From Jiangellaceae bacterium (lineage in GTDB: Bacteria; Actinomycetota; Actinomycetes; Jiangellales; Jiangellaceae): DNA of 64,000 bases. The notes under the pieces are model-generated. The model was not told where the DNA came from and made no database searches. It worked only from the letters and a program-made list of their open reading frames with translations. The DNA is taken from positions 2,429-66,428 of the forward strand of contig DASUUU010000157.1 in the NCBI GenBank assembly GCA_036373915.1, in the 5' to 3' direction. Below, one piece after another: positions 12,366 to 64,000 of the stretch (the first letter of the stretch is position 1; every line of letters begins with the position of its first letter). The position numbers and the translations under genes were made by a program.

Positions 12366-12800
12366 ATGGAGCAACGCATCAGCCTGATCACACTTGGTGT
12401 CGCCGACGTGGGCCGGGCCAAGGAGTTTTATGAGCGGCTCGGCTGGCAGGGCCAGGAGGTCGAGGAGACCGTGTTCTTCCAAGCGGGCGGCACCGTTGTC
12501 GTTCTATGGGGGCGCGACAAGCTCGCCGACGATGCAGGGATCGACGATGTGAATCGCGGGGGCTTCGGCGGAATCGCCATAGCGCACAACGTCCGGTCCC
12601 GGGCCGAGGTCGACGACGTGCTGGCCGATGCAGCGGACGCCGGGGCCGCGATCACACGAGCCGCGCGGGAGACCTTCTACGGCGGCTTTGCGGGCTGCTT
12701 CACCGACCCGGACGGCCATGTGTGGGAGATCGCCTACAACCCGGGGTTTACCTTCGGGCCGGATGGTTCGGTCATCCTCCCCGACTTCGGGGGAACGTAG
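12366..12800 (+). CDS. VOC (glyoxalase/bleomycin-resistance) family protein
   Basis: ISLITLGVADVGRAKEFYERLGW and a C-terminal DPDGHVWEIAYNP. Confidence 0.8.
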   Translation: MEQRISLITLGVADVGRAKEFYERLGWQGQEVEETVFFQAGGTVVVLWGRDKLADDAGIDDVNRGGFGGIAIAHNVRSRAEVDDVLADAADAGAAITRAARETFYGGFAGCFTDPDGHVWEIAYNPGFTFGPDGSVILPDFGGT

Positions 12801-12863
12801 CAGCGTCTATCGCCGCGACATGTAAGGCGTCTAGAGTGCCTTCACTGGTATGAAGGAGGGGGC

Positions 12864-14393: not shown

Positions 14394-14402
14394 GTGGCGA
14401 CA

Positions 14403-14439
14403 CCGCCGCGTCAGGGATCACCGGACCCTGACGCGGCGG
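14403..14439. terminator. bidirectional terminator hairpin between convergent genes
   Basis: CCGCCGCGTCAGGG-9 nt-CCCTGACGCGGCGG, a perfect 14-bp stem. Confidence 0.7.
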
Positions 14440-14449
14440 TCTGGCTTGC

Positions 14450-16828
14450 CTAGCTCACCGGCGGCACGTAGATCGACACCAGTGCACTCGCGGTGTCGGA
14501 GTTGCCGTCCGCGTCCCACACCTCCAGCGTGACGGTGTAGTTCTTGTTGCCGACGTACGCATGTCCGTCGAACTCTGCCGTGAAGGTGGAGCAGTCCTGC
14601 TCGGTGCCGGACTCTTCTGGACTGTTGGCGCCGGCGCACAGCACGACGTCCTCGTCCCCGCCGCTCGACACGGTCCAGCGGAAGTACGTCCCGTCGATCG
14701 GTGTGCCGTCGCCGTCCACGGCCGACCCGACGAAGCTCACCTCAGGTGCCACGCCGGGCGGCGCCGGGTAAACGGCTCCCGACTCGGGCGCGGTGATCGT
14801 CGCAGTCGGATGGTAGTCGGGCCTCGGCTCGGCCGTAATACCGATCGAATGGCTGTCGGACTCCACGTTGTCGTGACCCGTGAAGGTGATCTGGTAGGTC
14901 CCGGGGACCATGAGCGAACCGGGGACCGTGAGGTTGTGGCCGTCGCCGGTATGGACGACCGCACCGCCGCGGACGACCTCCCACGACACCTGATCGTCCG
15001 GCAGCGTGGCGAGTCCGACCTGGCTCTGCCCGTTCAGTTCCAGCGACTCGCCCGCCCACATGGTCTCGTTGTCGTCCGGGCTGACGATCTCGACGTCCGG
15101 TGCCTCGTAACTGATCTCGACGGTGACCTCGTCCTGCGCCTGCTGGCCGCCGGAGTCCGTCGTCGTGGCGACGATCGTGTGCGTACCGGCCGGCAGCGAG
15201 TCGTCGAACACGGCGTGCCTGCCACCGACGCCGGGCTGAGTCTCCACGTCCACGCCCGGGAACTCCCAGATGATCGGCAACGGCTCGCCACTCGCGTCCC
15301 GCGCCTCGGCTTCGAAGAGGATCTCGGTGCCGAGTGCGAAGCTCGTGCCGTCGTTCGGGTCGGAGATGGTCAGGGTTGGTCCCTCGCCGACGCAGCGGTA
15401 CTCGGGATCGAACAGGTCGTAGTCATCGGCCACCTCGGCAGCGGCGACCTCGGCGGCGATGTCGCGTAGCAGCCCCGTCAACGCACCCAATGCGGCATCG
15501 GTTGCGCTCGCATTCATCGCGATCGCCACGTTGATCTCGTCGTCAGGGGCGTCGTCGAACCGTCCTGGTAGGAACTTCATGACGGCCGACGTCCCACCCA
15601 GCAGCCGGCCGTTCTTGTAGCGCTCGTTGCCACCGGTTCGCCAGTCCCAGCCATGCGGTCTGTCGGGGTGCGCGTCCGGGAACGGGATGCTCTGCATCTC
15701 GGTCACGGTGTCCGGCTCGAGCAGGCGAAGGTTGTTGCTGGTCTGGTCGATCCCGCACATGATCCGAGCCAGGTTGCGCGCCGACGCCGACCAGCCACCG
15801 GTGGCCTGGAAGTATGCGGGCTTGTTCGGATCCAGTTGACCTCCGTGCGGCCAGGCATCCAGCCCGTCGTCGATGTGTGTGTTGTTCGGGACGACGTCGT
15901 GCAGGCCGAGCTTGTCGAGCACGTGCTGCTTGGTGTAGTCCCAGTAGCCGTTGTACCTAGGACCGTCACTCGCCTCTTCGACGATGTGGCCAAGCAGGCC
16001 GAAACCGTGGTTGGAATAGCTCTCCGCAGTGCCGGGCTCGAACCTCAACGGCGCGAGGCGGTTGCCGTCGTCGTCCTTGATCATCCCTTTCAGCACGGCG
16101 AGGTGGACGCCACGGTAATCGCGCATTTCCCGGCCGTAGTACGCGTCGACATCCTCTCGGTCGCCGCTGCGCAGGAAGCCGGCCGTGTGGGTGAGCAGGT
16201 GGCGTACGGTGATCTGGCTCGCCCACTCTCGAACCTTGTTCATCTCTGCGTGGACGTAGTTCGCATGATTCAACTCGACCACGCCATCGCGCATCGCCGC
16301 CCAGTACATGCCCGGATCTTTGAGGACGGGGAAGGGGTTCACCCACTGACCCATGTCGGCCGGGGGCCATTGGGTATTGAGATCCTTGAACGGGCCAGGG
16401 TCGCCGTAGATCGGCTGGTCGAGATCGAGCTTGCCCTCCTCGGCGAGGCGCATGACCGAGATCGTGGTGAGGATCTTGGAGACGCTCCCGATCTTGCTAC
16501 GCTGCCACGGCTCCATCCTGGTCTGCTCGTCGAGCTTGGCATAGCCGTAACCCTTCGACCAGACGAGCCGGCTGCCACGCGTCACGGCAAGCGTGGCTCC
16601 GGGTAGTTGGTTGTCGTCCAGGTACTCGAGCACGAGGGCATCCACACCGTTGCCGATCGTTTGCGCCCCCTCGCCGGTAACGGGCAGCTCGCCGAGCTGG
16701 GCCGGCAGGTTTGCCTGCTGGTCCGCCTTGCAGCCGCTGACCGTGACGCTCGCCGCGGCGAGGGCCGCCAACAGCAGCGTCCGGATCCGTGCTGGCCGCC
16801 GCCGAGTTCGCTGATTCGTTCTGTCCAT
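14450..16828 (-). CDS. serine hydrolase (beta-lactamase/PBP4-like family) lipoprotein with C-terminal PKD/Ig-like repeats
   Basis: SxxK motif (GSVSKIL). Lipobox LAAASVTVSGC after an RRRP N-terminus. The C-terminal ~300 aa form beta-rich repeats. Start moved to ATG 16828. Confidence 0.8.
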   Translation of the reverse strand: MDRTNQRTRRRPARIRTLLLAALAAASVTVSGCKADQQANLPAQLGELPVTGEGAQTIGNGVDALVLEYLDDNQLPGATLAVTRGSRLVWSKGYGYAKLDEQTRMEPWQRSKIGSVSKILTTISVMRLAEEGKLDLDQPIYGDPGPFKDLNTQWPPADMGQWVNPFPVLKDPGMYWAAMRDGVVELNHANYVHAEMNKVREWASQITVRHLLTHTAGFLRSGDREDVDAYYGREMRDYRGVHLAVLKGMIKDDDGNRLAPLRFEPGTAESYSNHGFGLLGHIVEEASDGPRYNGYWDYTKQHVLDKLGLHDVVPNNTHIDDGLDAWPHGGQLDPNKPAYFQATGGWSASARNLARIMCGIDQTSNNLRLLEPDTVTEMQSIPFPDAHPDRPHGWDWRTGGNERYKNGRLLGGTSAVMKFLPGRFDDAPDDEINVAIAMNASATDAALGALTGLLRDIAAEVAAAEVADDYDLFDPEYRCVGEGPTLTISDPNDGTSFALGTEILFEAEARDASGEPLPIIWEFPGVDVETQPGVGGRHAVFDDSLPAGTHTIVATTTDSGGQQAQDEVTVEISYEAPDVEIVSPDDNETMWAGESLELNGQSQVGLATLPDDQVSWEVVRGGAVVHTGDGHNLTVPGSLMVPGTYQITFTGHDNVESDSHSIGITAEPRPDYHPTATITAPESGAVYPAPPGVAPEVSFVGSAVDGDGTPIDGTYFRWTVSSGGDEDVVLCAGANSPEESGTEQDCSTFTAEFDGHAYVGNKNYTVTLEVWDADGNSDTASALVSIYVPPVS

Positions 16829-16962
16829 CGTCGCTCCTCCGTCGCGTGCCCGGCACGCTGCCGGACACCGGCATGAGCAACGGGAGGCGGAAATGCCAAC
16901 AACTTTTCGATGGCGTAGCGTCGAAGCTGGCCGTTCAGCCATCCGGAGCTGTTGGAGGACCG

Positions 16963-17937
16963 GTGGAGCGCACGATCGACTGGGACGCCGGGACGGTCGT
17001 GACCGTCGACCAGGGGCTGCTACCCCACGAGCGCCGGACGATCCGGTTGACGACCGTGGACGAGCTGATCGAGGCGATCCAACGGCTGGCGATCCGCGGC
17101 GCCCCGGCGCTCGGCGCGGCCGGTGCTCTCGGCGTCGCGCTGTCGGCTCACCGCCACCGCGGAGACGACACCACGGTGCGCGCGGAGGCCGCTCGGCTGG
17201 CCGCCGCCCGGCCCACTGCGGTTAACCTGGCCTGGGGTGTGCAACGCGCGCTCGCCCAGCTGCCCGAGGGCCGGGACGCCGTGCTGGCCGAGGCGCTCGC
17301 CGTCCTGGACGAGGACGAGCAGGTCAACCGGGAGGCGTCGCAACGCGCTGCCGACCTCGTACTGCAGCTGTGTCGGCGCAGGCCGCTTCGCGTGCTGACC
17401 CATTGCAACACCGGCCGGCTCGCCACGGTCGCGTGGGGAACGGCGCTCGGGACCGTACGCCATCTCGCGGCGGCCGATCAGATCGAGTACGTGCTGGCCA
17501 ACGAGACCCGGCCACTACTGCAGGGCAGCCGGCTCACCGCCTATGAACTGGCCGAAGCCGGCATTCCCTACCGGGTGTGCCCTGATTCGGCGGCGTCAGT
17601 GGCGATTGCTCAAGGACTTGTCGACTGCGTGCTCGTCGGCGCCGATCGGATCGCTGGCAACGGCGATGTGGCGAACAAGGTCGGTACGTACGCCGTCGCA
17701 CTGGCCGCGGCGCGGCACGGCATCCCCTTCGTCGTGGTGGCGCCCGAATCGACCTTCGACCCGTCGCTTCCGGACGGCGGCGCGATACCCATCGAGGAGC
17801 GTGCGGCCGAGGAGGTCACGCATGTCGGCGGGCGGCCGGTCGCTCCTGCGGGGGCGGACGCGTTCAACCCGGCGTTCGACGTGACGCCGGCTGATCTGGT
17901 GACCGCGATCGTCACCGAGCGCCGCATCGTCAGGTGA
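16963..17937 (+). CDS. mtnA: S-methyl-5-thioribose-1-phosphate isomerase
   Basis: IDWDAGTVVTVDQGLLPHE...IRGAPALGAAGALGVAL, CNTGRLAT and GADRIAGNGDVANKVGTY. GTG 16963 follows GGAGGA. The track start overlaps the divergent gene. Confidence 0.8.
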   Translation: MERTIDWDAGTVVTVDQGLLPHERRTIRLTTVDELIEAIQRLAIRGAPALGAAGALGVALSAHRHRGDDTTVRAEAARLAAARPTAVNLAWGVQRALAQLPEGRDAVLAEALAVLDEDEQVNREASQRAADLVLQLCRRRPLRVLTHCNTGRLATVAWGTALGTVRHLAAADQIEYVLANETRPLLQGSRLTAYELAEAGIPYRVCPDSAASVAIAQGLVDCVLVGADRIAGNGDVANKVGTYAVALAAARHGIPFVVVAPESTFDPSLPDGGAIPIEERAAEEVTHVGGRPVAPAGADAFNPAFDVTPADLVTAIVTERRIVR

Positions 17938-18577
17938 CCTCACGCCGGGACGCTCCGTACTCGGCGATCTTGTGAGACACCTTCTCGATCTCCTCCGCTG
18001 GAAGCAGTCGCGGCCGGCCATGAGCGCTCGCCCGCAACCACACGTCGCACAGCCACTCCAGGTAAACCGCTCTCGTGTACGCCTCGGCAAGCGTGTCACC
18101 GATGGCGACAGTCCCGTGGTTGCCGAGAATGCACGCGGTACGTCCGTCGAGCGCTTCGATGGCACGCGCCGCAAGCTCGCCGGTGCCGTATGTCGCGTAC
18201 GGGGCGACCCGGACGGGGCCGCCGAACATGGCGATCAGGTAGTGGATCGGCGGCAGTTCATCGGCGAGCGTGGACACGGCCGTGGCCGCTGTGGAGTGGG
18301 TGTGCACGACGGCTCGCGTCCCGGTCCCTTCGTACACCGCCAAGTGCATCGGCATCTCGGTTGTCGGTGCGAATGGTGCCTCGACCGGTGTGCCGTCGAG
18401 CCGGTGGACGCCCACCTGATCCGGCGTCAACTCGTCGTAGTCGACCCCACTCGGCGTCACCGCCACCAGATCACCGGACCGGACCGAGATGTTGCCCGAC
18501 GTTGCGACCACGAGGCCATCTGGACGCAGCCTGCGACAGTACGCGACGATCTCGCGCCGCCCGTCCTCCAGCACCAT
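17930..18577 (-). CDS. class II aldolase/adducin family protein (possible methylthioribulose-1-phosphate dehydratase)
   Basis: VVHTHSTAATAVS zinc-ligand region. Convergent 8-nt overlap with mtnA. Confidence 0.7.
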   Translation of the reverse strand: MVLEDGRREIVAYCRRLRPDGLVVATSGNISVRSGDLVAVTPSGVDYDELTPDQVGVHRLDGTPVEAPFAPTTEMPMHLAVYEGTGTRAVVHTHSTAATAVSTLADELPPIHYLIAMFGGPVRVAPYATYGTGELAARAIEALDGRTACILGNHGTVAIGDTLAEAYTRAVYLEWLCDVWLRASAHGRPRLLPAEEIEKVSHKIAEYGASRREVT

Positions 18578-18705
18578 GACCGCATCGTCTCAGCTCACCC
18601 CTGATGGGCGGCTATCCACGCAGCCTATGAACTCTCTCGCGATACGGGACGTGCCCGCCGGGTACATATCCAGCGGGCCAAGGGGCGAGCGAAGGGGCAC
18701 GGGCG

Positions 18706-19734
18706 GTGCGGCTGCGACGATGGGACCCGACCGGCCCGGCGATATCTCGTCGTCGCCGGGGCCGGGGATTCAGCTACACCGACCCCGACGGTCGAAAGAT
18801 CACGGATAAGGCGGTGCTCGAGCGGATCGCCGGCCTGGTGATCCCGCCGGCATGGCGTGACGTGCGGATCTGCCCGTGGCCGAACGGCCACTTGCAGGCG
18901 ATCGGGACGGACGACGCCGGCCGCCGCCAGTACCTCTACCACCCGGCCTGGCGCGAACGCCGTGACAAAGAGAAGTTCTACCGGATCCGCACGTTCGCTG
19001 AGCGACTCCCCGCGGCGCGGGCTCAGATCGCAGCCGATCTCGCAACCCGGGGCCTCAACCGGCGTCGCGTGCTGGCCGCCGCGGCCAGGTTGCTCGACAT
19101 CGGGTTCTTCCGGATCGGTGGTGAGGAGTACGCGGAGGACAACGGCTCGTACGGGCTCGCGACGGTGCTGCGCGAACACGTCAGCGCGGCGGGGAACGGG
19201 ACGATCGTCTTCGACTACCCGGCGAAGTGGGGCATGCAGCGAATCCACGCGATCGCGGACCAGACGGTCGTGTCCGTCATCCAGGCACTCCGCCGCCGCC
19301 GCGAACCTGGCGAGTCGCTGCTCGCGTACTACGAGGAACGCCAGTGGAAACGCATCCGGTCCGAAGACATCAACGAGTACCTGAAAGAGATCTTCGGCAC
19401 CGAAGTCACGGCGAAGGACTTCCGTACCTGGCATGCGACAGTGCTCGCCGCGGTGTCGTTGGCGATCGTCCAGCCGACAGGTTCGCGCACGAGCCGCAAG
19501 CGGGCCCTGGCCCACACCATGCGTGAGGTGTCGCACTACCTCGGCAACACACCGGCGGTGTCCCGCTCGTCGTACGTCGACCCGCACGTGGTCGATGCGT
19601 TCGAACAGGGCGAGACCATCGCCTGGGCACTCGACGGACTGGGCGACACCGCCGCGGGCGAACTCGCGACTCACGGCGGGGTCGAGGAGGCCGTGCTGAA
19701 GTTGCTGACCGGCAGGCACGCCGCGGGAGTTTGA
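18706..19734 (+). CDS. DNA topoisomerase IB
   Basis: GRGFSYTDPDGRKITDKAVLERIAGLVIPPAWRDVRICPWPNGHLQAIGTDDAGRRQYLYHPAW, plus C-terminal FRTWHAT and LGNTPAVSRSSYVDP (catalytic Tyr region). Confidence 0.8.
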   Translation: MRLRRWDPTGPAISRRRRGRGFSYTDPDGRKITDKAVLERIAGLVIPPAWRDVRICPWPNGHLQAIGTDDAGRRQYLYHPAWRERRDKEKFYRIRTFAERLPAARAQIAADLATRGLNRRRVLAAAARLLDIGFFRIGGEEYAEDNGSYGLATVLREHVSAAGNGTIVFDYPAKWGMQRIHAIADQTVVSVIQALRRRREPGESLLAYYEERQWKRIRSEDINEYLKEIFGTEVTAKDFRTWHATVLAAVSLAIVQPTGSRTSRKRALAHTMREVSHYLGNTPAVSRSSYVDPHVVDAFEQGETIAWALDGLGDTAAGELATHGGVEEAVLKLLTGRHAAGV

Positions 19735-19762
19735 CCGGCCACGGCCGGGGCAGTCGCCTGCC

Positions 19763-21025
19763 ATGACATCGCGGCGCGTCGCGGTCCTGGACAGCACGGC
19801 ATCGCTACTTGCCACCGGCTTCTCCTGGCTGCCCAGCCGGTGGCGGCGCAGCGGGCAGTCGGCCGTCCGTGCCCGGCTGCTCGGCAAGCCCGCGATCGCG
19901 CTGCGCGGGCCGGATGCGATCCCGTACTTCTACGACGAGCAGCGCGTGCGGCGCAGTGGCGCCGTGCCCAAGGCGGTGCAGAAGACGCTGTTCGGTGAAG
20001 GCGCGGTGCAAACACTGGACGGTGATGAGCATCGCGTCCGCAAGGCGATGTTCCTCGGCATCCTGACCGATCCCAATCGGGTGGACGCTCTCGTCCGGCG
20101 CACCGCCGAGGCCTGGGACGATGCGGCACAGCGCTGGATCTCCGAACCGAGCGTCGTGCTGTTCGACGAAGCCGCGCAGGTCCACCCGCGCCGTCTGCGG
20201 GTGGGCGGGCGTCCCGCTCGACGACAAGGACGTACCGCTGTGGGCGAAGCAGTTCGTCGCAACAGTCGACGGCTTCGCCACCCCGTCCCTGCGGCACATG
20301 CAGGCCAGGCTCGCCCGGAAGCGACTCGAAAGCTGGCTCACGAGGCTCATCGTGGCGACGCGCAACGGTGCGGCCGGGAGCCTCTCCGACACCACCGGAA
20401 CCGAGTCGGTCGTCGAACTCGTGGCTCACCACCGCGACGCCGGAGGCGGGTTGCTCAAGCCTCGCATCGCGGCCGTGGAGCTGCTCAACATTCTCAGGCT
20501 GACCGTCGCCGTGTCGTGTTCGTCACGTTTGCCGCACATGCCATGCACCGGTGGCCGGAACAACGCCAACGTGTCCAGGAGGGCGATGCCGACTACCTCG
20601 AGGCATTCGCTCAGGAGGTCCGGCGCTTCTATCCCTTCGCGCCCTTTGTCGGCGGCCGGGCGACGATGGCGCAGATCTGGCGCGAGCAGCAGATTCCAGC
20701 AGGTGGGATGGTGCTACTCGACCTGTACGGGCAGAACCACGACGCAGCCCTGTGGCCGGAGCCGTACACCTTCAGCCCTGATCGCTTCCTGCACCGACAG
20801 TTGGACTCGAACGAACTCGTGCCACAGGGTGGTGGGGATCCAGCGGCTGGCCACCGCTGCCCAGGCGAGCAGATCACCGTCGAGCTGATCAAGGTACTGG
20901 CGGCCAAGCTCGCCGCAATGCAGTACGACGTGCCCGACCAGGACCTGCGCATCTCGCTCACGCGCATCCCCACCCGCCCGCGCAGTGGATTCGTCATGAC
21001 GAACGTCCGTCCTCCGGACCGCTGA
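19763..21025 (+). pseudogene. CYP152-family P450 (fatty-acid peroxygenase-like) with two compensating frameshifts
   Basis: The ends read in frame (LLGKPAIALRG..., FAQEVRRFYPFAPF, LLDLYGQNHD, PQGGGDPAAGHRCPGE). The conserved middle (AVCGWAGVPL...AAVELLNILRLTVAVS) is only readable in the +1 frame (track ORF 20121-20888). The in-frame translation there is Arg-rich nonsense. Confidence 0.7.
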
Positions 21026-54917: not shown

Positions 54918-55184
54918 ATGGCGAAGCCGGCGCGGATCCCTGTTCGTGAGCTTCGCAACCATGTGAGCGAGGTACTGCGGCGCGTCGAGGCCGGTGAGAC
55001 GCTCGAGGTCACGGTCAATAATCGCCCGGTCGCACTGCTCGTACCCACGCGCGCGCGGCCCCGCACGGTGTCGACCCGCCACCTCCTGGGAAGCATTCGA
55101 CAAGCCGACGCCGGGCTCCGCGATGACCTTGCCGCGGAGTTGACGCAGACGACTGACGATCTTTCGGATCCATGGCCGCAGTAG
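54918..55184 (+). CDS. type II antitoxin (Phd/YefM family)
   Basis: IPVRELRNHVSEVLRRVEAGETLEVTVNNRPVALLVP. It overlaps the PIN gene by 13 nt. Confidence 0.8.
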   Translation: MAKPARIPVRELRNHVSEVLRRVEAGETLEVTVNNRPVALLVPTRARPRTVSTRHLLGSIRQADAGLRDDLAAELTQTTDDLSDPWPQ

Positions 55185-55594
55185 CCCCGAATGCTGCTAC
55201 GCCGCCGCTGATCGGGCTGCTTGACACATCGGTCTTCATCGCCGAGGAATCGGGACGGCCGCTCGCCCAGGAGCGACTCCCAGAGCAATCCGCGGTCAGC
55301 GCCATCACGATCGGCGAACTTCGGTGGGGTGTCCTCCTGGCTGCCAATGACGAGGCGCGTTCGCAGCGGCTCGACACCCTCACTGATGCGTCACAGCTGG
55401 ATCCGGTGCCAGTTGACGAGCGGGTCGCCGCGGCCTGGGCGCTGCTTCGGCAGAAGCTGAGATCGGTCGGCGCGAAGATGGAGATCAACGACTCATGGAT
55501 TGCGGCCACCGCGATCGCATACCAATGGCCCGTCGTCACTCAGGACGACGGCTTTCCAAGCGAGATCCCAGAGCTCACAGTCATCAAGGTGTAG
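55172..55594 (+). CDS. vapC: type II toxin, PIN domain ribonuclease
   Basis: LLDTSVFIAEE, ITIGELRWGV and NDSWIAATAIAYQWPVVTQDDGF (acidic PIN residues). Confidence 0.8.
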   Translation: MAAVAPNAATPPLIGLLDTSVFIAEESGRPLAQERLPEQSAVSAITIGELRWGVLLAANDEARSQRLDTLTDASQLDPVPVDERVAAAWALLRQKLRSVGAKMEINDSWIAATAIAYQWPVVTQDDGFPSEIPELTVIKV

Positions 55595-55624: not shown

Positions 55625-56161
55625 TCAAGGGCCGGGTGCCAGTGGCAGCGCCATGAGCAGGTCGGTCTGCAACTCCGAGCCGAACCGGAAGGCGTGAGTG
55701 CCGACCTTTCTGTAACCGAGCCGCTCGTAGAATCTGATCGCTCTCGGGTTTTTCTCCCACACGCCGAGCCAGAGGACGTCGCAGTCCGCCCCCCGCGCAT
55801 GCTCGGCACAGGCATCGAGCAGTGCGCGCCCCAAGCCCCGGCCATGCTCACCCGAGTCGATGTAGAGCTGGTTCAGCTCGGCCGGCCGGGCGGCCACGAT
55901 GCCGTCCTCGGTGCTGCCGACGACCAGCTTTGCGAATCCGATGATGCGGCCCGCTTCCTCGGCGACGACGTAGGTGACGCTGGGATCGCGTAGCGCTCCC
56001 GAAATGGCCGGCTGGTTGTAGTTCTCGGCGATGTGCGCCGCCAGCTCCGCCGGATCGTTCGCGTGTCCGTAGGTGTCGCGGAACGTTCGCGCACCCAGGT
56101 CGACCAACGCGGCTACGTCGTGCTCGGTCGCTGAGCGAATCGTCACCTTGGGCGCCACCAT
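55625..56161 (-). CDS. GNAT family N-acetyltransferase
   Basis: QLYIDSGEHGRGLGRALLDA acetyl-CoA loop and NPRAIRFYERLGY. Confidence 0.85.
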   Translation of the reverse strand: MVAPKVTIRSATEHDVAALVDLGARTFRDTYGHANDPAELAAHIAENYNQPAISGALRDPSVTYVVAEEAGRIIGFAKLVVGSTEDGIVAARPAELNQLYIDSGEHGRGLGRALLDACAEHARGADCDVLWLGVWEKNPRAIRFYERLGYRKVGTHAFRFGSELQTDLLMALPLAPGP

Positions 56162-56171
56162 GCGCGGCAGG

Positions 56172-58988
56172 CTAACCGATGCCGTCAGCGCCGAGCCCGA
56201 GGAGTTCGGCCAGGATCTCGAGCACGTGCCGGTACTGCCGGCCGGTGGCCCGGGTCATACCTATCTCGCAGGTGCGGTTGCACGACGCGTGGGCGGCCGC
56301 ATCGGCTGCGCTGATCTCGGCGGCCTGCTGCCTGGTTGCCGAGGCGGTCAGTTCAGGGTGGAGCATGCCGCGATCGCCGGCGAACGCGCAGCATCCCCAG
56401 GTGGTCGGCCGGAAGACCTGCCCTGCGACGGCAGCGGCGACGTTCGTCAAGGCGGCGTCCATGCCGAGCCGGGTGGACGAGCAGGTCGGGTGCAATGCGA
56501 GCACGGGCAGCTTCTCGGCGACGGCGGGCAGGCGAGGCAGGACCTCGGTGGCGACGAACTCGACAGCGTCCACCACCCGCAGCGAGCCACCGAGAGCGTG
56601 CCCGAGCCCCTCGGTGCAGGACGACGCGTCGCAGATCACCGGCAGCCGGCCATTGTCGGAGGCCGCGATCAACGCATCGCGGACGCGGCGCTTGATCAGT
56701 TCCGCTCCGCGAACGTGGCCCTTGGACGTCCAGGGAGTGCCGCAGCACAACGCGTCCACGCCGTCGGGCACGAGCAGGGTGATGCCCGCACGCTCGCACA
56801 ACGCCGCGAAAGCCGGCTGCACCCCCGCTCTCCCGCCGGCCGGGCCGAACATCGCGTTCACGCATGCCGGCAGGTAGACCGCGCGCGGGGCAGCGCTTGG
56901 AGCGGGACGGGCCCGGCGTCGGCCGCCGGACGGCAGGTCATCGCTCCACAGTGGAACGTTCTCGGCACCGAGGGCCCGGCGGGCCAGCCGGTTCGGCCCG
57001 CGCACGACCGGTGCCGGGGCGGTCGCCGCGGCCGTTAGTGCCGCCGACGCTGCCCTTGTCGTGCCCGACCAGTGCCGAGCGGCAGCCGCCCAGGCCCGGT
57101 CGGCGGTACGGCTGGCCGCCTCGGCCCGGAGCCGCTTGACGAGATCACCGGTGTTGATCGCCACCGGGCAGGCCGTCTGGCACATGCCGTCCACTGCGCA
57201 GGTCTGTACGCCGTCGTACTCGTAGGCCGTCTCGAGTTCGGCGACGAGCCCGGCGTCTCCCTCGGCCCGGGCCTGCGCGAGGGCACGGCGCACCACGATC
57301 CGCTGCCGGGGCGTGGTAGTCAGATCCCGGCTCGGGCAGACCGGCTCACAGAACCCGCACTCGACGCAGCGGTCGACCTCCGGCTCAACCCGCGGCGCCC
57401 ACTTGATGTGCCGGATATGGGCGTGCGGGTCGTCGTTCAGAATTATGCCCTGGTTGAGCATCCCGACCGGGTCGAACAGCCGCTTGACCTCGCGCATCAC
57501 CTCGTACAGTTCGTCGCCGTACTGGCGGCGTACGTACGGAGCCATGATCCGGCCGGTGCCGTGCTCGGCCTTGAGTGAGCCGCCCTCACCCAGCACCAGA
57601 TCGACCATGTCCCCGGTGAACCGGACGTACCGCTCCTGCGGCTCGGGCCGGTCGAACCGGTCGGTCAGCATGAAGTGCACGTTGCCGTCCTTCGCGTGAC
57701 CGAAGATCACGCTGCCGCCGTAGCCGTGCCTGTCGAAAAGCTCGGTCAACGACGCGCAGGTACGCGCCAGGGCGCCTACCGGGACGACGACGTCCTCCAG
57801 CAACGCGGTCGTCCCCTGCGGACGAGCACCAGAGATCGCGGCGTACAGGCCCTTGCGGACGTGCCACTGCCTGGCCCGGATCGCAGGATCGGATGTCAAC
57901 ACCGCCGGCACCGACAACGGCAAGCCATCGAGCACCCCAGCGCCGTCCGCCCTTATCGCTGCCAGCTGATCGGACGTCCCAGCCCGGTACTCGACCAGCA
58001 ATGCGGTATGCGAGCGCACGTCGATCGCCCGCAGGCTCCCGTCCGCCTTCGGGTCGGCCTGTGCGACCCGCAGCGATGCGGCGTCCAGCAACTCGATGGT
58101 CGCCGCACCCGTCGCCACCAGGTCGGGTAGCGCGCCGGTGGCAGCCGCCAGGTCGTCGAACACCAGCAATCCCGTCGCGGCGTGGGGCAGCACTGGAATC
58201 GTGCGGAAGACTGCCTCGGCGATGAAGCCCAGCGTCCCCTCACTGCCGACGATCAGGTGAGCAAGGATGTCGGCCGCCGAGTCGTGATCGACGAAAGCGT
58301 TGAGCGAGTAGCCCATCGTGTTCTTCATCGCGAACTGTCGCTCGATCGTGCGTACCGACGCCGGCGTGCCGCGCACGCGATCCCGCAGCCGCAGCAGCCC
58401 TTCGTACAGCTCGGGTTCGAGCGCTCGTAGCCGGTTGTCAGCGTCCGGCGCGCCGGTGTCGATCGCGGTGCCGGACGGCAGTACGACGGTCACCGACTCC
58501 AGGGTCTGGTAGGCGTTATCGACAGTCCCGCACGCCATTCCGGACGAGTTGTTCGCTACCACACCACCGACCGTGCAGGCCGACTCACTCGCCGGATCGG
58601 GCCCGAACTTGCGCCCGTACGGCGCCAGCCGCGCGTTCAACTGGCGCACAGTGATACCCGGCTGGACGCGGGCCCGCTTACCACCGTCCAGCACCTCGAC
58701 GTCGCGGAACCCGCGCCGGGTGTCCACCAGGATGCCGCCACTGACCGCCTGCCCCGACAGGCTCGTCCCACCGGACCGGAACGTCAGCGGAACCCCGTGC
58801 TCAGCACTAACCCGCAACAGGCGGCCCACTTCGGCGGCCTCGTTCGCCATCACAACGGCTCGTGGCACCAAGACGTAGTGGGACGCGTCGTTGGCCAGCG
58901 CGTAGCGGTCCAGCGCACGTAGGCGCACTTGATCCGGCGTACCCATCGCTGCGTTGAGCGCCTGCTCCAGCGTCTCTGTCGGGATCAC
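56172..58988 (-). CDS. FAD-binding oxidase fused to an Fe-S/CCG-domain protein (D-lactate/glycolate dehydrogenase-like)
   Basis: N-terminal FAD_binding_4 (FRSGGTSLSGQ). Central CVECGFCEPVCP and CAVDGMCQTACP ferredoxin motifs. C-terminal Cys-rich CCG repeats. Confidence 0.85.
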   Translation of the reverse strand: MIPTETLEQALNAAMGTPDQVRLRALDRYALANDASHYVLVPRAVVMANEAAEVGRLLRVSAEHGVPLTFRSGGTSLSGQAVSGGILVDTRRGFRDVEVLDGGKRARVQPGITVRQLNARLAPYGRKFGPDPASESACTVGGVVANNSSGMACGTVDNAYQTLESVTVVLPSGTAIDTGAPDADNRLRALEPELYEGLLRLRDRVRGTPASVRTIERQFAMKNTMGYSLNAFVDHDSAADILAHLIVGSEGTLGFIAEAVFRTIPVLPHAATGLLVFDDLAAATGALPDLVATGAATIELLDAASLRVAQADPKADGSLRAIDVRSHTALLVEYRAGTSDQLAAIRADGAGVLDGLPLSVPAVLTSDPAIRARQWHVRKGLYAAISGARPQGTTALLEDVVVPVGALARTCASLTELFDRHGYGGSVIFGHAKDGNVHFMLTDRFDRPEPQERYVRFTGDMVDLVLGEGGSLKAEHGTGRIMAPYVRRQYGDELYEVMREVKRLFDPVGMLNQGIILNDDPHAHIRHIKWAPRVEPEVDRCVECGFCEPVCPSRDLTTTPRQRIVVRRALAQARAEGDAGLVAELETAYEYDGVQTCAVDGMCQTACPVAINTGDLVKRLRAEAASRTADRAWAAAARHWSGTTRAASAALTAAATAPAPVVRGPNRLARRALGAENVPLWSDDLPSGGRRRARPAPSAAPRAVYLPACVNAMFGPAGGRAGVQPAFAALCERAGITLLVPDGVDALCCGTPWTSKGHVRGAELIKRRVRDALIAASDNGRLPVICDASSCTEGLGHALGGSLRVVDAVEFVATEVLPRLPAVAEKLPVLALHPTCSSTRLGMDAALTNVAAAVAGQVFRPTTWGCCAFAGDRGMLHPELTASATRQQAAEISAADAAAHASCNRTCEIGMTRATGRQYRHVLEILAELLGLGADGIG

Positions 58989-59268
58989 CGGGCCATCTTC
59001 GCAGGGCCTTGACCGTTAGCCGCGGTGGTGATCTGCCTTCAGGGGATGCCAGACCCCCCACTAGCACCCCCTGAAGGCGTTCGGTGACCTGCGCCCGGCC
59101 GAACGTTCGCGTCCGTGGACGCGGAACGCCGTTGCCAGCTACCGCTGACACCGGGCGCAGGCACCTTCCCTCCCCCGCCGGGCTTGTGTGCCGCCCCTTA
59201 GTCGACCTACAGAACGTCCGGAGTGGCGTTCTGATACATCGGACGGACGAAAGATTTCCGTGATCCTG

Positions 59269-59706
59269 CTAGAGCCTGACCCACTCGGTGATCACGTTGT
59301 CGTTGGCGGTCTGCAAGTGCAGCCGGAACATCGCGCTGGGCAGCGGCCTGATCGAGAACCAGCCGCTCTCGTCGACGGTAACCGCCTGGCTACCGCCCTC
59401 CTGGGTCTGGACCTCGATCGTTCCCGAGCGGGCGGGGACCAGCTGGCCCAACAGAGCGTCGGGCGTCACTTCCAGCTCTATCGAGATGTCACTCGCCAGG
59501 AAGCTGAGGGCCCGGACGGCCGCCCGCTCAGCCCTGACACCGGCAAGGGAGTCCACATCGCCGGCTTCGTGCGCGAGCGCCGCGAGTTCGGCATCGACGG
59601 TGCGCCAGGCGAAGGCCGCCTTACCCGCCGCGACGAACCCGGCGGGCACCTGCGCCACGGAGTTCAGCGCCTCACGTAGCTCGGCAAGTAGTTGCTCATC
59701 CGACAT
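59269..59706 (-). CDS. soluble hypothetical protein coupled to the ECF sigma (possible non-canonical anti-sigma)
   Basis: ATG 59706 lies 1 nt after the sigma TGA. 145 aa with no TM helix and no HxxxCxxC motif. Confidence 0.55.
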   Translation of the reverse strand: MSDEQLLAELREALNSVAQVPAGFVAAGKAAFAWRTVDAELAALAHEAGDVDSLAGVRAERAAVRALSFLASDISIELEVTPDALLGQLVPARSGTIEVQTQEGGSQAVTVDESGWFSIRPLPSAMFRLHLQTANDNVITEWVRL

Positions 59707-59707
59707 G

Positions 59708-60301
59708 TCACTCACCTGCCGTCCGTGGTTGCGTGCCCGCAATGGCGGCCAGGACCGGGCTCGCACGTAGCTTGCCCAGACACCGCTGCCGGGTGGGGCC
59801 TATCGCGCCGACCGGCATGCCGAGGATGGCGCTGATCTCGTCGTATGGCGTGACCGGATCCGCGAACAGCAGCTTGAGCAGTTGCCGGCAGCGCTCAGAC
59901 AGGTCGGCGTATGCGAGGCGTAGCGCGATGAGTCTCTCCTGTGCCAGCAGCCAGTCGTCGGCTGCGGGGTTCGTATCGTCGACCAGACGCTGGTTGTCTT
60001 CGACGGGGAGCTCGCGGTGCTTGGCCTGCAGCAAGCGGAGGCATTCGCGGCGAGTCGTCGTGGCCAGCCAACCGGGAAGAGCGGCCGGCTCGCGAATGGT
60101 GTCCAGCTTCTCCACCAGCCGCAGCCAGACGCAGGCGCCGACGTCGTCGGCGTCGGCACGAGTCAGGTGGTAGCGCTGGCACAGCGACCAGACCAGCGGG
60201 GCGTACCGGTCCACTATCTGGTCCCACGCCGTCTGATCGCCGTCCCTGGCTCGCTCGACCAAGTCGACGACCGAAAGGTCGTCATGCACAAGTCCAATCA
60301 T
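59708..60301 (-). CDS. ECF-type RNA polymerase sigma-70 family factor
   Basis: Region 2 (DQIVDRYAPLVWSLCQRY...ADDVGACVWLRLVEKL) and region 4 (LSERCRQLLKLLF...YDEISAILGMPVGAIGPTRQRCLGKLR). Start moved to ATG 60301. Confidence 0.85.
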   Translation of the reverse strand: MIGLVHDDLSVVDLVERARDGDQTAWDQIVDRYAPLVWSLCQRYHLTRADADDVGACVWLRLVEKLDTIREPAALPGWLATTTRRECLRLLQAKHRELPVEDNQRLVDDTNPAADDWLLAQERLIALRLAYADLSERCRQLLKLLFADPVTPYDEISAILGMPVGAIGPTRQRCLGKLRASPVLAAIAGTQPRTAGE

Positions 60302-60470
60302 GGCTGCCAGGAGGACCTGGTGACTACCTCCACCGGAGGGCACGTGACGCCCTCGAGATGCACAACCACATTCACCGACCGATCCTCCTGACCGCTCGTA
60401 TCCCCGTCGAGGCCAGCTGTGCCTCTGCTTATCGGAGGTGCAATGTGAGGAGTTGATACGTTCGCCGGAT

Positions 60471-61838
60471 TCAGATCCGGGGCAGGATCTCGACCTGCTT
60501 GCCGTACAGCGGCACCTCACGAGCACCTGCCAGCAAGCGTCGCTTGGCCTCGGTCGGTGTCACACCGTCATCTAAGGCGATCTTGGCGATCGCGCCGGCG
60601 ACCTGCGGGGCGGCGAACGAGGTGCCGCTCCACAACGCCCACGCGTTCTCCGGAAACTCTTCGCGCCGAGGATCAGTGACTGGAGACTCAATGCCCGGGA
60701 CGAACGTCGAACGCACGCCCTCACCTATTGTGCAGACGTCGACCCACGCTCCCCGACTCGACCACTCAGCCGGCGACAGATCCTGAGTGAGGGCTGCGAC
60801 AGCGGTGACAGTCGGAAACGCGGCTGGGTAGCACTCACGGGCGTGACCGAAGTTGCCGGCCGCCGCCACCACGAGGGCTTCATGCCCGGACTTACGGGAT
60901 TCTTCGTCAATGATCTCCAGCGCGACACCGAGCGCGACAGGACGCTCGTCATCTGCCGTCTCGGCTCCGAACGACAGATTCACGATCACTTCCTTGCCGT
61001 CCTCGAAGCCCTTGCGCACCCACTGAACTAACTCGACGGCGACCCTAAGTTCATCGACGAATCCGTCACTGTCGACGGAGTTGTACACGTTGATGTCCGC
61101 CGCGGGCGCGATCTGTTGGACGATGCCGGCACAGAAGGTGCCGTGCCCGGCAGCGGGGTCGAGGAAGCCGTCCCCACCCGGCGGTGAATCGTCGAGGACT
61201 TCACCATTGTCATCTGTCTCCAGGTCCTGCAGCCACCCGTCGCTCCTGCCCCGGCCAAAGACTCCGGTATCGATGATGACGACGCGGACTGGGGACTGCT
61301 GCGACTCGGCGGCTGAGGCGCTGTGAGGCTCCGGTTTCGGCCCGTCTGTATTCTCAGGGCTCGCTACCGACTTCACGCGCCCACCTAGCGGCGTCATGTA
61401 GTTAGCGGAAACCGAGACACCCTGCTTACGAAGGCTTGATGCGAGCTCAGCCAACATGACCGGACTCGCCTCGCCGGAGCTGTATGCGATGACTCTGCTG
61501 TCCAACCCCGTGACCGCTTGCCTGGTCAGGTTGTATCGCGGACCCTCGAGCAGCGGGCGCACACGTTCGTCGTCCTCAGCGCGTACCAATACTTGTTCTC
61601 TCGCTGCCGCCGCCAACGTGCTGCCGCCGTACTTGTCAGGGATCTGCTCGAACTGAACTCGATCGCTTCGGCCCACACGGCGCTGCTGGATATCGGAAAT
61701 CAGCCGGTCCTCGTAGGCAGGGTCGTCCCGAGTCGCCGTGATGGAACGGACCTGCCGCTGCACACGGCGGAGATCTGCCAGGCGGTCGGCGTCGGTGCGT
61801 CGGTCGGGCTGTCCAAAGCTGTGCTGATGATTTGGCAT
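60471..61838 (-). CDS. S8 family (subtilisin-like) serine peptidase, predicted cytoplasmic
   Basis: Asp VVIIDTGV, His HGTFCAG, Asn AAAGN, Ser SGTSFAAP. No signal peptide or TM. ATG 61838 follows GGAGGGGGA. Confidence 0.85.
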   Translation of the reverse strand: MPNHQHSFGQPDRRTDADRLADLRRVQRQVRSITATRDDPAYEDRLISDIQQRRVGRSDRVQFEQIPDKYGGSTLAAAAREQVLVRAEDDERVRPLLEGPRYNLTRQAVTGLDSRVIAYSSGEASPVMLAELASSLRKQGVSVSANYMTPLGGRVKSVASPENTDGPKPEPHSASAAESQQSPVRVVIIDTGVFGRGRSDGWLQDLETDDNGEVLDDSPPGGDGFLDPAAGHGTFCAGIVQQIAPAADINVYNSVDSDGFVDELRVAVELVQWVRKGFEDGKEVIVNLSFGAETADDERPVALGVALEIIDEESRKSGHEALVVAAAGNFGHARECYPAAFPTVTAVAALTQDLSPAEWSSRGAWVDVCTIGEGVRSTFVPGIESPVTDPRREEFPENAWALWSGTSFAAPQVAGAIAKIALDDGVTPTEAKRRLLAGAREVPLYGKQVEILPRI

Positions 61839-61896
61839 TGTGTATCCCCCTCCGGTCGGCGAGACTACCCTGAACCGATCACTTGCGGCATTTGCC

Positions 61897-64000
61897 ATGA
61901 CAGACACCCATGACGATCTCCTGATACGCGCCAAGGCGGCCTATCAGGATGCGATCAACGACCCGAAGTCCTTCCGAACCGGGGCCGCTGTCCTAGTCAT
62001 GGAAGCGCGAGACAGCGGCGAGGATCTCGCTCTCTGCCTCGCCCTCCGCGCCGCGGGCTGGGCCGAGCGCTACGCCTTGGAGCACCAGAACGCGCTTCGA
62101 CTGCTCAACGAAGCCGTTCGGATCGCGCAACGCAACCGGCTGGATCAGGTGCTTGGAGAGGTGCTCCTCACTCGTGGCGCTGTCGAGCATGAGCTTGGCC
62201 ACGTGTCAGCGGCCCGTCGCGACTTCGACGCTGCCGAAGCGCTGATCCCTCCCGAGGCCGCGGCGGAACTGACGCTCCAACGCGCCACCCTCGCCGACAA
62301 CCAGGGTGATCGCGTGCTGGCCTCCGGCCTCTACGCCCGATTGCTGAAGGATCCGACGCTCACGGCAGAGGTCCGCTTCAAAGCGGCGACGAACTTCGGA
62401 GTCCTTCAAGCTGAAAGCGGTCGGTTCCAGGAGGCGCTTGCCCTCTTTGACGTGGCAAGGTCCGCGGCTGACCAGGTGAGCCCCTTGTATGTAGCACTCG
62501 TCGCCGAGAACCGGGCCTGGACCACCGTACTGGCCGGCCGGCTGGCCGACGGTGTCGCACAGTTCGAAGCTGCAAAGGCGATGTTCGAGGAACTAGGACT
62601 CCCCCCGGGTGAACTCTTGAAGGAGTACTCGGAAGCGCTCATGCAGCTTCGCCTCCTCCCTGAAGCGCTCGAACATGCCCGCGAGGCAGTTGCGATCCTC
62701 GAGGCCAACGACGTCGACCTGATGGCCGCGGAGGCCCGCCTCAACTCCGCCTCACTGTCGCTGATGGCGAACCGGCTGGACGAAGCCGTGGCGGAGGCTG
62801 AAGCAGCGCGAAAGAGCTTCCGCCAGCAGCGGCGGCCCTGGGGTGTGGCGAGGGCGACTTCGATCGAGTTGGAGGCCCGGCTGCGGCTCGACGCGATCGG
62901 GCCGCGGGACGTCACCCGTGCCCGCCGGGCCGCCCAAGCCCTGGAGCAGGCAAGAATGCGCGCCCACGCGGTGCAGGCCCACCTGATCGCCGGCCAGGTC
63001 GCGATGGCCCGCGGCCGGGAAACCGACGCATTGGCTGCCTGGGCCCGGTCTCACGAACTCAGCCGCGGCCTCCCGTTGCTTGTTCGGCTGATGGGCACGC
63101 TGGCGGCGGCGCTCAGCGCCCAGCATCAGGGGCGCGCCGACCGCGTGCGGTCGCTCACCCGGTCGGGCCTCGACGACCTGGCGAAGCACCGGGCGGCACT
63201 CCCCTCGACGGAGCTGCGCGCACTCGCCTCAGGGCACGGCGAGGAACTCGGCCGGCTCGGGCTGGCGTCCCGAGTCGGCAAACAGCCCGCCGCTCGCGTC
63301 CTGGAGTGGATGGAGCGCACGCGCGCCGCCGCCCTGTCCGTCGTCGACGCAGAACCGAGCGAAGACATCAGCGACGACCTCGGAGAACTAAGGTCGGTGT
63401 ACGCCGAACTCGTCGCCGCCCGCCAGGACAGCGGCACCGAGCCGACCGGCCTCCGGGCCCGGCAGCGGCGGATCGAGCAGCGCATTCGCAGCGCCACCTG
63501 GAGCACCCGGTCGAGGGACGCGCAGGCCGGCGCCGCGGCTTCGGCTCCCGATCTCCGGAGAGCCCTGGACGGCCGAGTGCTCGTCGAGTTCGATGTGCTC
63601 GACGGCGATCTCATCGCGGCGGTGCTCGAGCCGCGCCGGACCCGGATCGTCCAGCTCGGACCGCTCGAAAGCGTGCAGCGCGACGCGGAGCGGCTGCTGT
63701 TCTACCTGCGGTACCTCACCAGGCCGCGGCCGGCGGCGACCGCCGTGCAGACTATGCAGTCCAACGCCAGGGAGGCCATTGCCCGGCTCGCCGGGACGCT
63801 CATCGAGCCGCTGAACGTCGCGCCTGACGCCGAGTTGGTCGTCGTGCCGGCCAGCGGGTTGCACTCGCTGCCGTGGGCCGCCTTGCATGCTGCGCCGGTC
63901 GCGCTGGCTCCGTCGGGGTCGATGTGGGCGCGCAGCCGCTACATACGGCCGTCCCCGACCGGCCAGGTGGTTCTCGCCGCCGGCCCCGAGCTGCCGGGAG
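61897..64000 (+). CDS. TPR repeat / CHAT domain protein, 5' 701 codons (runs off window end)
   Basis: Not in the ORF track. I read the frame from ATG 61897 to 64000 without finding a stop. Helical Ala/Leu/Arg-rich TPR-like repeats are followed by ELVVVPASGLHSLPWAAL, VALAPSGSMWA and VVLAAGPELPG, typical of the start of a CHAT domain. Start codon uncertain. Confidence 0.7.
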   Translation, partial: MTDTHDDLLIRAKAAYQDAINDPKSFRTGAAVLVMEARDSGEDLALCLALRAAGWAERYALEHQNALRLLNEAVRIAQRNRLDQVLGEVLLTRGAVEHELGHVSAARRDFDAAEALIPPEAAAELTLQRATLADNQGDRVLASGLYARLLKDPTLTAEVRFKAATNFGVLQAESGRFQEALALFDVARSAADQVSPLYVALVAENRAWTTVLAGRLADGVAQFEAAKAMFEELGLPPGELLKEYSEALMQLRLLPEALEHAREAVAILEANDVDLMAAEARLNSASLSLMANRLDEAVAEAEAARKSFRQQRRPWGVARATSIELEARLRLDAIGPRDVTRARRAAQALEQARMRAHAVQAHLIAGQVAMARGRETDALAAWARSHELSRGLPLLVRLMGTLAAALSAQHQGRADRVRSLTRSGLDDLAKHRAALPSTELRALASGHGEELGRLGLASRVGKQPAARVLEWMERTRAAALSVVDAEPSEDISDDLGELRSVYAELVAARQDSGTEPTGLRARQRRIEQRIRSATWSTRSRDAQAGAAASAPDLRRALDGRVLVEFDVLDGDLIAAVLEPRRTRIVQLGPLESVQRDAERLLFYLRYLTRPRPAATAVQTMQSNAREAIARLAGTLIEPLNVAPDAELVVVPASGLHSLPWAALHAAPVALAPSGSMWARSRYIRPSPTGQVVLAAGPELPG

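Follow-up and report, generated by a model that had tools for sequence, protein, structure and literature searches.

A conserved TPR-CHAT protease, subtilase and ECF54 sigma factor module of Actinomycetota, with a predicted promoter of the subtilase gene inside the protease gene

A stretch of 64,000 nucleotides from Jiangellaceae bacterium (assembly GCA_036373915.1, contig DASUUU010000157.1, positions 2,429 to 66,428 of the forward strand), referred to here as the window, carries at its end four neighbouring genes for a TPR-CHAT caspase-fold protease, an S8 subtilase, a sigma factor of the extracytoplasmic function (ECF) type and a 145-aa soluble protein. The question raised by this locus is which of these products control the sigma factor and which are controlled by it. 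An earlier note, written from the sequence alone, had proposed that the two intracellular proteases gate the sigma factor or act as an abortive-defence effector, and had matched the genes to no characterised system. The four genes are all present as it described them. The analysis revealed that they form a well conserved module, which is already catalogued as the context of sigma group ECF54 but whose mechanism is unsolved. New with respect to the published ECF54 descriptions is that the group promoter of the subtilase gene lies inside the CHAT coding sequence, and that the CHAT gene has no such promoter of its own. This evidence in the codons orders the components of the module, and a concrete anti-sigma candidate and candidate outputs are added to it.

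On the minus strand of the window the order is subtilase (position -1), sigma factor and 145-aa gene (+1), with the TPR-CHAT gene at -2 and divergent from the subtilase. The sigma gene (59708..60301, minus strand; 197 aa from an ATG, the exact start codon being uncertain) codes for the sigma2 and sigma4 regions only, with no long extension. Sigma70_r2 was matched at an expectation value (E) of 7.5e-11, region 4 weakly at 1e-3 and TIGR02937 (sigma70-ECF) at 1e-19, in accordance with the two regions given in the earlier note. The example of ECF54 given in the review PMC8999054 is SFT86700.1 of Geodermatophilus amargosae, and the sigma gene of the related locus L061, from the same species, was identified as SFT86700.1 by exact look-up. 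The window sigma is 50% identical to this protein (E 1e-48).

The context of ECF54 was catalogued by Huang, Pinto, Fritz and Mascher in 2015, as relayed in later papers, and by Casas-Pastor et al. (2021, NAR 49:986). In the supplement to the latter work (bioRxiv 10.1101/2019.12.11.873521) the group is placed 100% in Actinobacteria. The description lists a protein whose carboxypeptidase-regulatory-like domain is "always in position +1" (0.61 per ECF), a subtilase (+2 or -1; 0.68 per ECF) and a CHAT protein with TPR repeats (+3 or -2; 0.71 per ECF), and predicts the promoter GTATCAG-Xn-CTCC with GTATCAG as the -35 and CTCC as the -10 element. No putative anti-sigma is given and, unlike for neighbouring groups, there is no entry on studied members. 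Whether the neighbours are regulators or targets was explicitly left open by these authors, and regulation by proteolysis has already been proposed both in PMC8999054 and in the group description.

The window agrees with this description gene for gene and in its promoter, with no essential difference, and the module is almost certainly a further ECF54 member, from a Jiangellaceae metagenome-assembled genome (MAG); the assignment is based on the 50% identity to the named example, the promoter and the gene context, and not on the group's own classifier. The group having been listed for a decade, the module is therefore not an unmatched system. The earlier statement that no characterised system fits was overtaken by the published ECF54 context, and it holds to the extent that no member has been experimentally characterised. 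Likewise, the sigma falls in a group that is described, its mechanism not being part of that description.

Relatives of the TPR-CHAT protein were collected by a one-genome-per-species scan, which gave 246 species encoding one. The best 80 of these, with up to 10 kb of flank on each side, formed the locus set, in which genes were counted by tblastn with the proteins of the window. All 80 loci come from Actinomycetota, and they span Jiangellaceae, Pseudonocardiaceae, Micromonosporaceae, Geodermatophilaceae, Streptosporangiaceae, Cellulomonas and others. Two-block motifs were enumerated upstream of the sigma genes of these loci ahead of seeing the published ECF54 motif, and the resulting GTATCA-N16-CTC(T/C) agrees with it. 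Of the 56 loci with a sigma gene within 10 kb, at least 23-30 have the motif upstream of that gene. Upstream of the subtilase gene it was found, at fixed spacing, in about 40 of 79 loci.

A position weight matrix (PWM) built from the other loci was then run over the 64-kb window and gave exactly two strong sites. The second-best match (19.3 bits; 60432..60459, minus strand, GTATCA-N16-CTCCGA) is the predicted autoregulatory ECF54-type promoter of the sigma/145-aa operon; it reads GTATCAACTCCTCACATTGCACCTCC at 60459(-), and its -35 box begins 12 nt past the subtilase stop codon. The best match (22.9 bits; 61900..61927, minus strand) is the predicted promoter of the subtilase gene, and it is written into the first codons of CHAT. 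CHAT codons 9-11 (CTG ATA CGC) carry its -35 box GTATCA (61927-61922) as the reverse complement, and codons 2-3 are complementary to its -10 box GTCTGT (61905-61900).

The codons of the 80 CHAT genes carry the footprint of this promoter. The hexamer TGATAC occurs in frame in 51 of the 80 genes. ATA accounts for 75 of their 1222 Ile codons, and 51 of these 75 lie at the promoter site; elsewhere ATA is rare in these genomes, with about 2% of the CHAT Ile codons outside the site. The residues encoded at the box vary (LIR, VIH, VIR, LIQ, VIQ) while TGATAC remains constant, therefore selection acts here on the DNA and not on the protein. This constitutes strong evidence, at the level of sequence, that the -35 box of the subtilase inside CHAT is functional. 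In the enrichment scan of 1.49 Mb of locus sequence 126 matches to the motif were obtained, of which 64 lie within 260 nt upstream of a subtilase, sigma or 145-aa gene and none lies upstream of CHAT.

The subtilase is thus very probably a target of the sigma factor; bearing the ECF54 promoter, it would more likely be an output than an input of the sigma. The proposal that both proteases gate the sigma is for the same reason probably wrong as regards the subtilase. The CHAT protease would lie outside the sigma regulon, as an input and not as a target. A scan for sigma-70 promoters and terminators returned nothing, a CHAT promoter included. A plus-strand GTATC at 61842-61846 was considered as a CHAT promoter and ruled out; it overlaps the ribosome-binding site of the subtilase and is not conserved, reading GCATC in the Jiangellaceae loci L001 and L008.

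The conservation of the neighbourhood was measured in the locus set. A subtilase orthologue is present in 79 of the 80 loci, the exception being a contig of 2.7 kb, and in 68 it is adjacent to and divergent from CHAT. The sigma gene lies within 10 kb of CHAT in 56 loci, and the 145-aa gene stands directly 3' of the sigma gene in 42. The sigma/145-aa pair varies in place and orientation relative to the protease pair, and this mobility indicates a functional link rather than mere inheritance. All-against-all clustering of the open reading frames (ORFs) of the 80 loci yielded the four genes and shadow ORFs only, with no other widely conserved neighbour. The four-gene neighbourhood is hence kept across Actinomycetota, in dozens of genomes of several families, and the four genes are a conserved functional module whose grouping is not due to chance.

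The TPR-CHAT gene (61897..64000, plus strand) is cut by the window end after 701 of its 872 codons. The frame in the window, scanned by itself against Pfam, gave sub-threshold TPR matches and no CHAT match. The remainder was read from P0001, an 872-aa protein of a Jiangellaceae MAG labelled at NCBI as "CHAT domain-containing tetratricopeptide repeat protein", which is 100% identical to the window frame across all 701 residues. Pfam CHAT (PF12770) matches P0001 at residues 627-870 (E 2.7e-31), and the window therefore holds the first ~75 residues of the domain, which bears out the CHAT assignment made from the truncated frame. The catalytic dyad falls past the window end; in P0001 it consists of His744 (LAHLACH) and Cys784 (LAACES), and both are invariant when 18 homologues (48-82% identity) are aligned. 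The lack of a dyad, which would have counted against the earlier reading, was thus not observed. The protein has neither a transmembrane helix nor a signal peptide. No match to PDB sequences was obtained at E up to 1, though PDB holds Csx29 structures, and no homology to Csx29, separase or DdvA can therefore be claimed.

The subtilase gene (60471..61838, minus strand; 455 aa) is divergent from CHAT, with 58 bp between the two starts, and is preceded by the ribosome-binding site GGAGGGGG. Peptidase_S8 (PF00082) was matched at residues 186-439 (E 2e-19). The Asp/His/Ser triad is present in subtilisin order together with the oxyanion Asn. D190 (DTG), N329 (AAGN) and S407 (GTSFAAP) are invariant in an alignment of 19 family sequences, and H232 (HGT) is kept in all save one, where it is Gln. 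The maximum Kyte-Doolittle mean over 19 residues is 0.97 and the N-terminus does not resemble a signal peptide. The complete motif set and the lack of a signal peptide or membrane helix are as the earlier note had them. For the four module proteins together this maximum is at most 1.57, no N-terminus is signal-peptide-like, and neither a transmembrane helix nor an HxxxCxxC motif is present in any of them; all four products are accordingly predicted to be cytoplasmic. The Pfam scan of the module proteins matched no anti-sigma family (zf-HC2, RskA or others), and the claim that a canonical anti-sigma is missing from the locus was thereby upheld.

The AlphaFold2 model of the subtilase has a mean predicted local distance difference test score (pLDDT) of 69.6 and a predicted template-modelling score (pTM) of 0.80. 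It shows an N-terminal helical hairpin (residues 16-54), a prodomain-like alpha/beta unit (63-145) and the catalytic domain from about residue 186. In Foldseek the model was aligned with unprocessed pro-subtilisins (3afg, 3whi and PCSK9) over 423-437 columns, the N-terminal extension included, at template-modelling scores of ~0.42 and with a model of pLDDT 69.6. The model suggests, at modest confidence, that the subtilase is a cytoplasmic zymogen. A homologue of 618 aa and 56% identity, P0351 (L081 3155-5011), carries an N-terminal TIR domain and is the family member in which the catalytic His is replaced by Gln; its gene adjoins that of an Endonuclease_NS protein and not a CHAT gene.

The 145-aa gene (59269..59706, minus strand) starts one base past the sigma stop, the junction TGAcATG being read at 59704-59710, so that the stop of the one is coupled to the start of the other. 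No significant Pfam match, zf-HC2 included, and no transmembrane helix was found in its product, which agrees with the coupling and the solubility described for it earlier. The AlphaFold2 model, built with 28 sequences, has a mean pLDDT of 79. Residues 3-47 form a helical hairpin, residues ~39-60 are disordered and include the invariant R58, and residues 66-140 fold into an Ig/FN3-like beta-sandwich with pLDDT above 90. Foldseek of this model against PDB returned generic Ig/FN3 sandwiches only (E above 0.01), and a profile search of PDB sequences found nothing. Weak matches to CarboxypepD_reg (PF13620) in 11 of 28 family members identify the protein as the "+1" protein of the ECF54 description. 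The family is large, with 2908 relatives in a profile search of 1.84 billion representatives, and the top 150 are all stand-alone proteins of ~150 aa which offer no informative fusion.

The position of the gene and the hairpin, linker and sandwich of the model fit a cleavable soluble inhibitor, and on this account the 145-aa protein may be a soluble non-canonical anti-sigma, at about even odds. The soluble partner of the earlier note is thus indeed soluble, and it is no longer unexplained, being now the best anti-sigma candidate by position and modelled architecture. Copies of the family also occur in the vicinity of CHAT (L031 1604-2026 and L041 8611-9018), with no sigma detected in the available stretch. 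Extra paralogues with an ECF54-type motif of their own upstream were seen at L015 4471-4977 and L041 3676-4134.

The observations can be assembled into the following mechanism, in which CHAT cleaves the 145-aa protein, the sigma is freed and the pro-subtilase is induced; a probability of roughly 0.4 is assigned to it. The TPR-CHAT protein would be expressed independently of the sigma and act as a sensor-protease. The 145-aa protein would hold the sigma through its N-terminal hairpin, with its Ig-like C-terminal domain and the conserved disordered linker serving as protease handle and cleavage site. A ligand bound to the TPR array would lead the His/Cys site of CHAT to cut this inhibitor and set the sigma free, and the cleavage step taken by itself is held to be rather doubtful. 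From GTATCA-N16-CTCT promoters the free sigma would drive both the operon to which it belongs and the subtilase gene. Further outputs would differ by lineage: Micromonosporaceae would add an adenylate cyclase, three lineages a contractile-injection cluster, and Jiangellaceae a structured RNA or leader. The subtilase would be made as a pro-enzyme and form the conserved proteolytic output, as executioner or as feedback. The promoter of the subtilase overlaps the CHAT start, therefore sigma activity may interfere with CHAT expression and could dampen it. The gene content, its conservation, the catalytic residues and the shared motif with its imprint in the codons are what the sequences show; that the 145-aa protein is an anti-sigma, that CHAT is the protease which activates the sigma, and what kind of signal it receives are what we infer here.

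Several results weigh against this mechanism. In about 14 loci CHAT and the subtilase are kept although no sigma or 145-aa gene occurs in the complete 10-kb flanks; there the core pair may work without the other two, or a sigma gene may lie elsewhere. The strict motif was found upstream of the sigma in 23-30 of 56 loci and upstream of the subtilase in about half. The 145-aa protein has no similarity to known anti-sigma domains in Pfam, PDB sequences or the fold search, and its N-terminal hairpin is modelled at moderate confidence only. The Pfam scan of the subtilase gave no Inhibitor_I9 propeptide match, and the model of this protein is mediocre (pLDDT 69.6). Lastly, the published view of ECF54 is a different one (PMC8999054): no anti-sigma exists and the proteases act on the sigma itself.

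According to that literature model the subtilase and/or CHAT degrade the sigma, and the 145-aa protein is a protease adaptor or regulator. It was put forward for the group in PMC8999054 and in the group description, it accords with the lack of a canonical anti-sigma domain, and a subtilase which is sigma-dependent and degrades the sigma would make a simple negative-feedback loop. It is nevertheless considered unlikely. The sigma has no evident degron, and the 145-aa gene is placed, in 42 loci, as cognate anti-sigma genes are. The two-part architecture of its product with a flexible linker suits a cleavable inhibitor, and the known TPR-CHAT/ECF systems target the inhibitor and not the sigma.

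The tight linkage of the two proteases allows another arrangement, in which neither is a regulator. Both would be outputs or effectors that form a pair, for instance with one activating the other, and act on other targets in the cell, and an unrelated signal would control the sigma/145-aa pair. CHAT and the subtilase show the tightest linkage of the module (79/80, 68 divergent and adjacent), which persists where no sigma is nearby; the subtilase carries the promoter of the sigma and appears zymogen-like in its model. A protease cascade initiated by CHAT is reported from type III-B CRISPR and offers a precedent (bioRxiv 10.1101/2023.06.23.546230). CHAT, however, has no ECF54 promoter and would hence not be co-induced with the subtilase. 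The loci with no nearby sigma retain the GTATCA box before the subtilase, which argues that a sigma is still involved there. This arrangement is accordingly regarded as improbable.

An anti-phage or abortive-infection role, in which TPR-CHAT senses a phage protein and the subtilase, in some lineages together with a contractile-injection system or cyclic-nucleotide signalling, kills or arrests the cell, is very improbable: it is hinted at by the TIR fusion of the 56%-identical homologue P0351, by the contractile-injection cluster which adjoins the module in three loci with the motif at its tail-tube gene, and by the recurrence of CHAT and ECF sigmas in defence regulation, but CHAT, the sigma and the 145-aa protein match no PADLOC-DB 2.0 model, the subtilase has a generic "subtilase" match (2e-8) and weak IetS matches only, no defence genes are conserved nearby in the 80 loci, the window flanks look metabolic or housekeeping by eye (the FAD-oxidase gene described below being the one that was domain-scanned), and the TIR-subtilase stands in a different context with its catalytic His lost. 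Of the abortive-defence idea of the earlier note, the hints from the TIR fusion and the injection clusters remain, and a convincing PADLOC match is lacking.

The mechanism in which CHAT frees the sigma by cutting the 145-aa protein finds its best working analogy in the craspase of type III-E CRISPR (Strecker et al. 2022, PMC10028731), where the TPR-CHAT protein Csx29 cleaves the soluble inhibitor Csx30 and an ECF sigma is freed. The likeness consists of a cytoplasmic TPR-CHAT protein with the His/Cys dyad, an ECF-type sigma and an adjacent soluble two-domain candidate inhibitor, suggested by the architecture and gene position of the 145-aa protein. The differences are several. The module has no Cas7-11, CRISPR array or Csx31, and its CHAT protein has no sequence relative in PDB (E up to 1) or PADLOC match. 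Csx30 is four times as large as the 145-aa protein, for which no PDB sequence relative was found, and the subtilase is added as a constant partner.

A second comparison is DdvA-DdvS of Myxococcus xanthus (PMC11506125), in which the anti-sigma DdvA bears a TPR-CHAT of the separase/craspase type with a His/Cys dyad, and signal-induced CHAT proteolysis was proposed as the trigger. In both systems an ECF sigma is tied to a TPR-CHAT module with this dyad. DdvA is a single transmembrane protein whose N-terminal zinc-binding anti-sigma domain is cytoplasmic and whose TPR-CHAT is periplasmic, whereas the TPR-CHAT protein of the actinobacterial module is a separate cytoplasmic protein of 872 aa with no transmembrane helix or zinc motif. 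In type III-B SAVED-CHAT (bioRxiv 10.1101/2023.06.23.546230) CHAT reportedly heads a protease cascade, which offers a precedent for the processing of a second, zymogen-like protease by CHAT; there the signal is cyclic oligoadenylate, received through the SAVED domain, and the second protease is caspase-like, in contrast to the subtilase of the module.

Only a few ECF groups lack both a known regulator and a studied member, and ECF54 is among them. Since 2015 the ECF54 neighbourhood has been on record with inputs and outputs unsettled, and the promoter evidence makes their ordering testable. If the 145-aa protein is an anti-sigma cut by TPR-CHAT, it would represent a new and widespread class of soluble anti-sigma factors, and the CHAT-to-sigma logic of craspase would exist outside CRISPR. 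The links to a cyclase and to contractile-injection clusters suggest possible outputs, regulated cell death among them. Taken furthest, ECF54 would be a CRISPR-independent craspase-like switch: TPR-CHAT would sense a cellular or invader protein and cleave a new class of small anti-sigma, the executioner pro-subtilase would be induced from a promoter within the first codons of its own sensor, and the whole would serve as a cell-death or developmental circuit of multicellular Actinomycetota, to which a contractile-injection system or cyclic AMP signalling is added in some lineages. Such a far-reaching version seems unlikely.

Lineage-specific genes with the motif were seen beside the module. A class III adenylate/guanylate cyclase gene (PF00211, ~200 aa) stands directly after CHAT in 11 Micromonosporaceae loci (L018, L024, L030, L032, L037, L042, L043, L050, L053, L076 and L077, at ~12620-13330), and 10 of the 11 have an ECF54-type motif ~34 nt upstream of it. 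A contractile-injection (phage-tail-like) cluster adjoins the module in three unrelated loci (L048 13321-20595, L064 877-8359 and L074 ~12980-20268). It comprises genes for the tail tube gp19, a VgrG-like hub, gp25, Baseplate_J and a zinc-ribbon/NADase_transloc protein, and each of the three tail-tube genes has an ECF54-type motif (GTATCT-N16/17-CTCT) 32-34 nt upstream. No link of Streptomyces contractile-injection systems to a sigma or to CHAT was found in PMC10020575, the one paper searched for it. A protein of ~700 aa with no Pfam match, which may be a further lineage-specific target, has the motif 29-88 nt upstream of its gene (L031 7185-9299, L041 9348-11462 and L059 1-1939).

In the window a third ECF54-like motif (59209..59237, minus strand; GTATCA-N17-TTCTGT) begins 32 nt past the stop of the 145-aa gene. 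The Jiangellaceae loci L001 and L008 have it at the corresponding position, and L006 a similar one further downstream; it may belong to the module. Downstream of it a strong RNA hairpin is conserved (59037..59078, minus strand). The leader and hairpin, CCUUCAGGGGGUGCUAG...CUGGCAUCCCCUGAAGG, are common to L001 and L008, and the hairpin is kept in L006. The 221-nt leader after the motif has a folding energy of -124.7 kcal/mol (z -4.6). An Rfam scan of 58700-62100 gave no real match, leader and hairpin included. The region may act as a small RNA under control of the sigma or as a 5' leader.

The third motif points at this leader and then at the gene immediately downstream of the module, which codes for a 938-aa flavin adenine dinucleotide (FAD)-oxidase/4Fe-4S protein (56172..58988, minus strand; FAD_binding_4, FAD-oxidase_C, 4Fe-4S dicluster and CCG domain). 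A 4Fe-4S protein is mentioned near ECF54 by Casas-Pastor et al. The gene was considered as a part of the module and rejected, being absent from all 80 related loci. Further along, two small overlapping genes at 54918-55594 look by eye like those of a Phd/YefM-type antitoxin (88 aa) and, behind it, a VapC/PIN toxin (140 aa), and the toxin-antitoxin-like pair is adjoined by a GNAT-like acetyltransferase ORF at 55625-56161, likewise recognised by eye.

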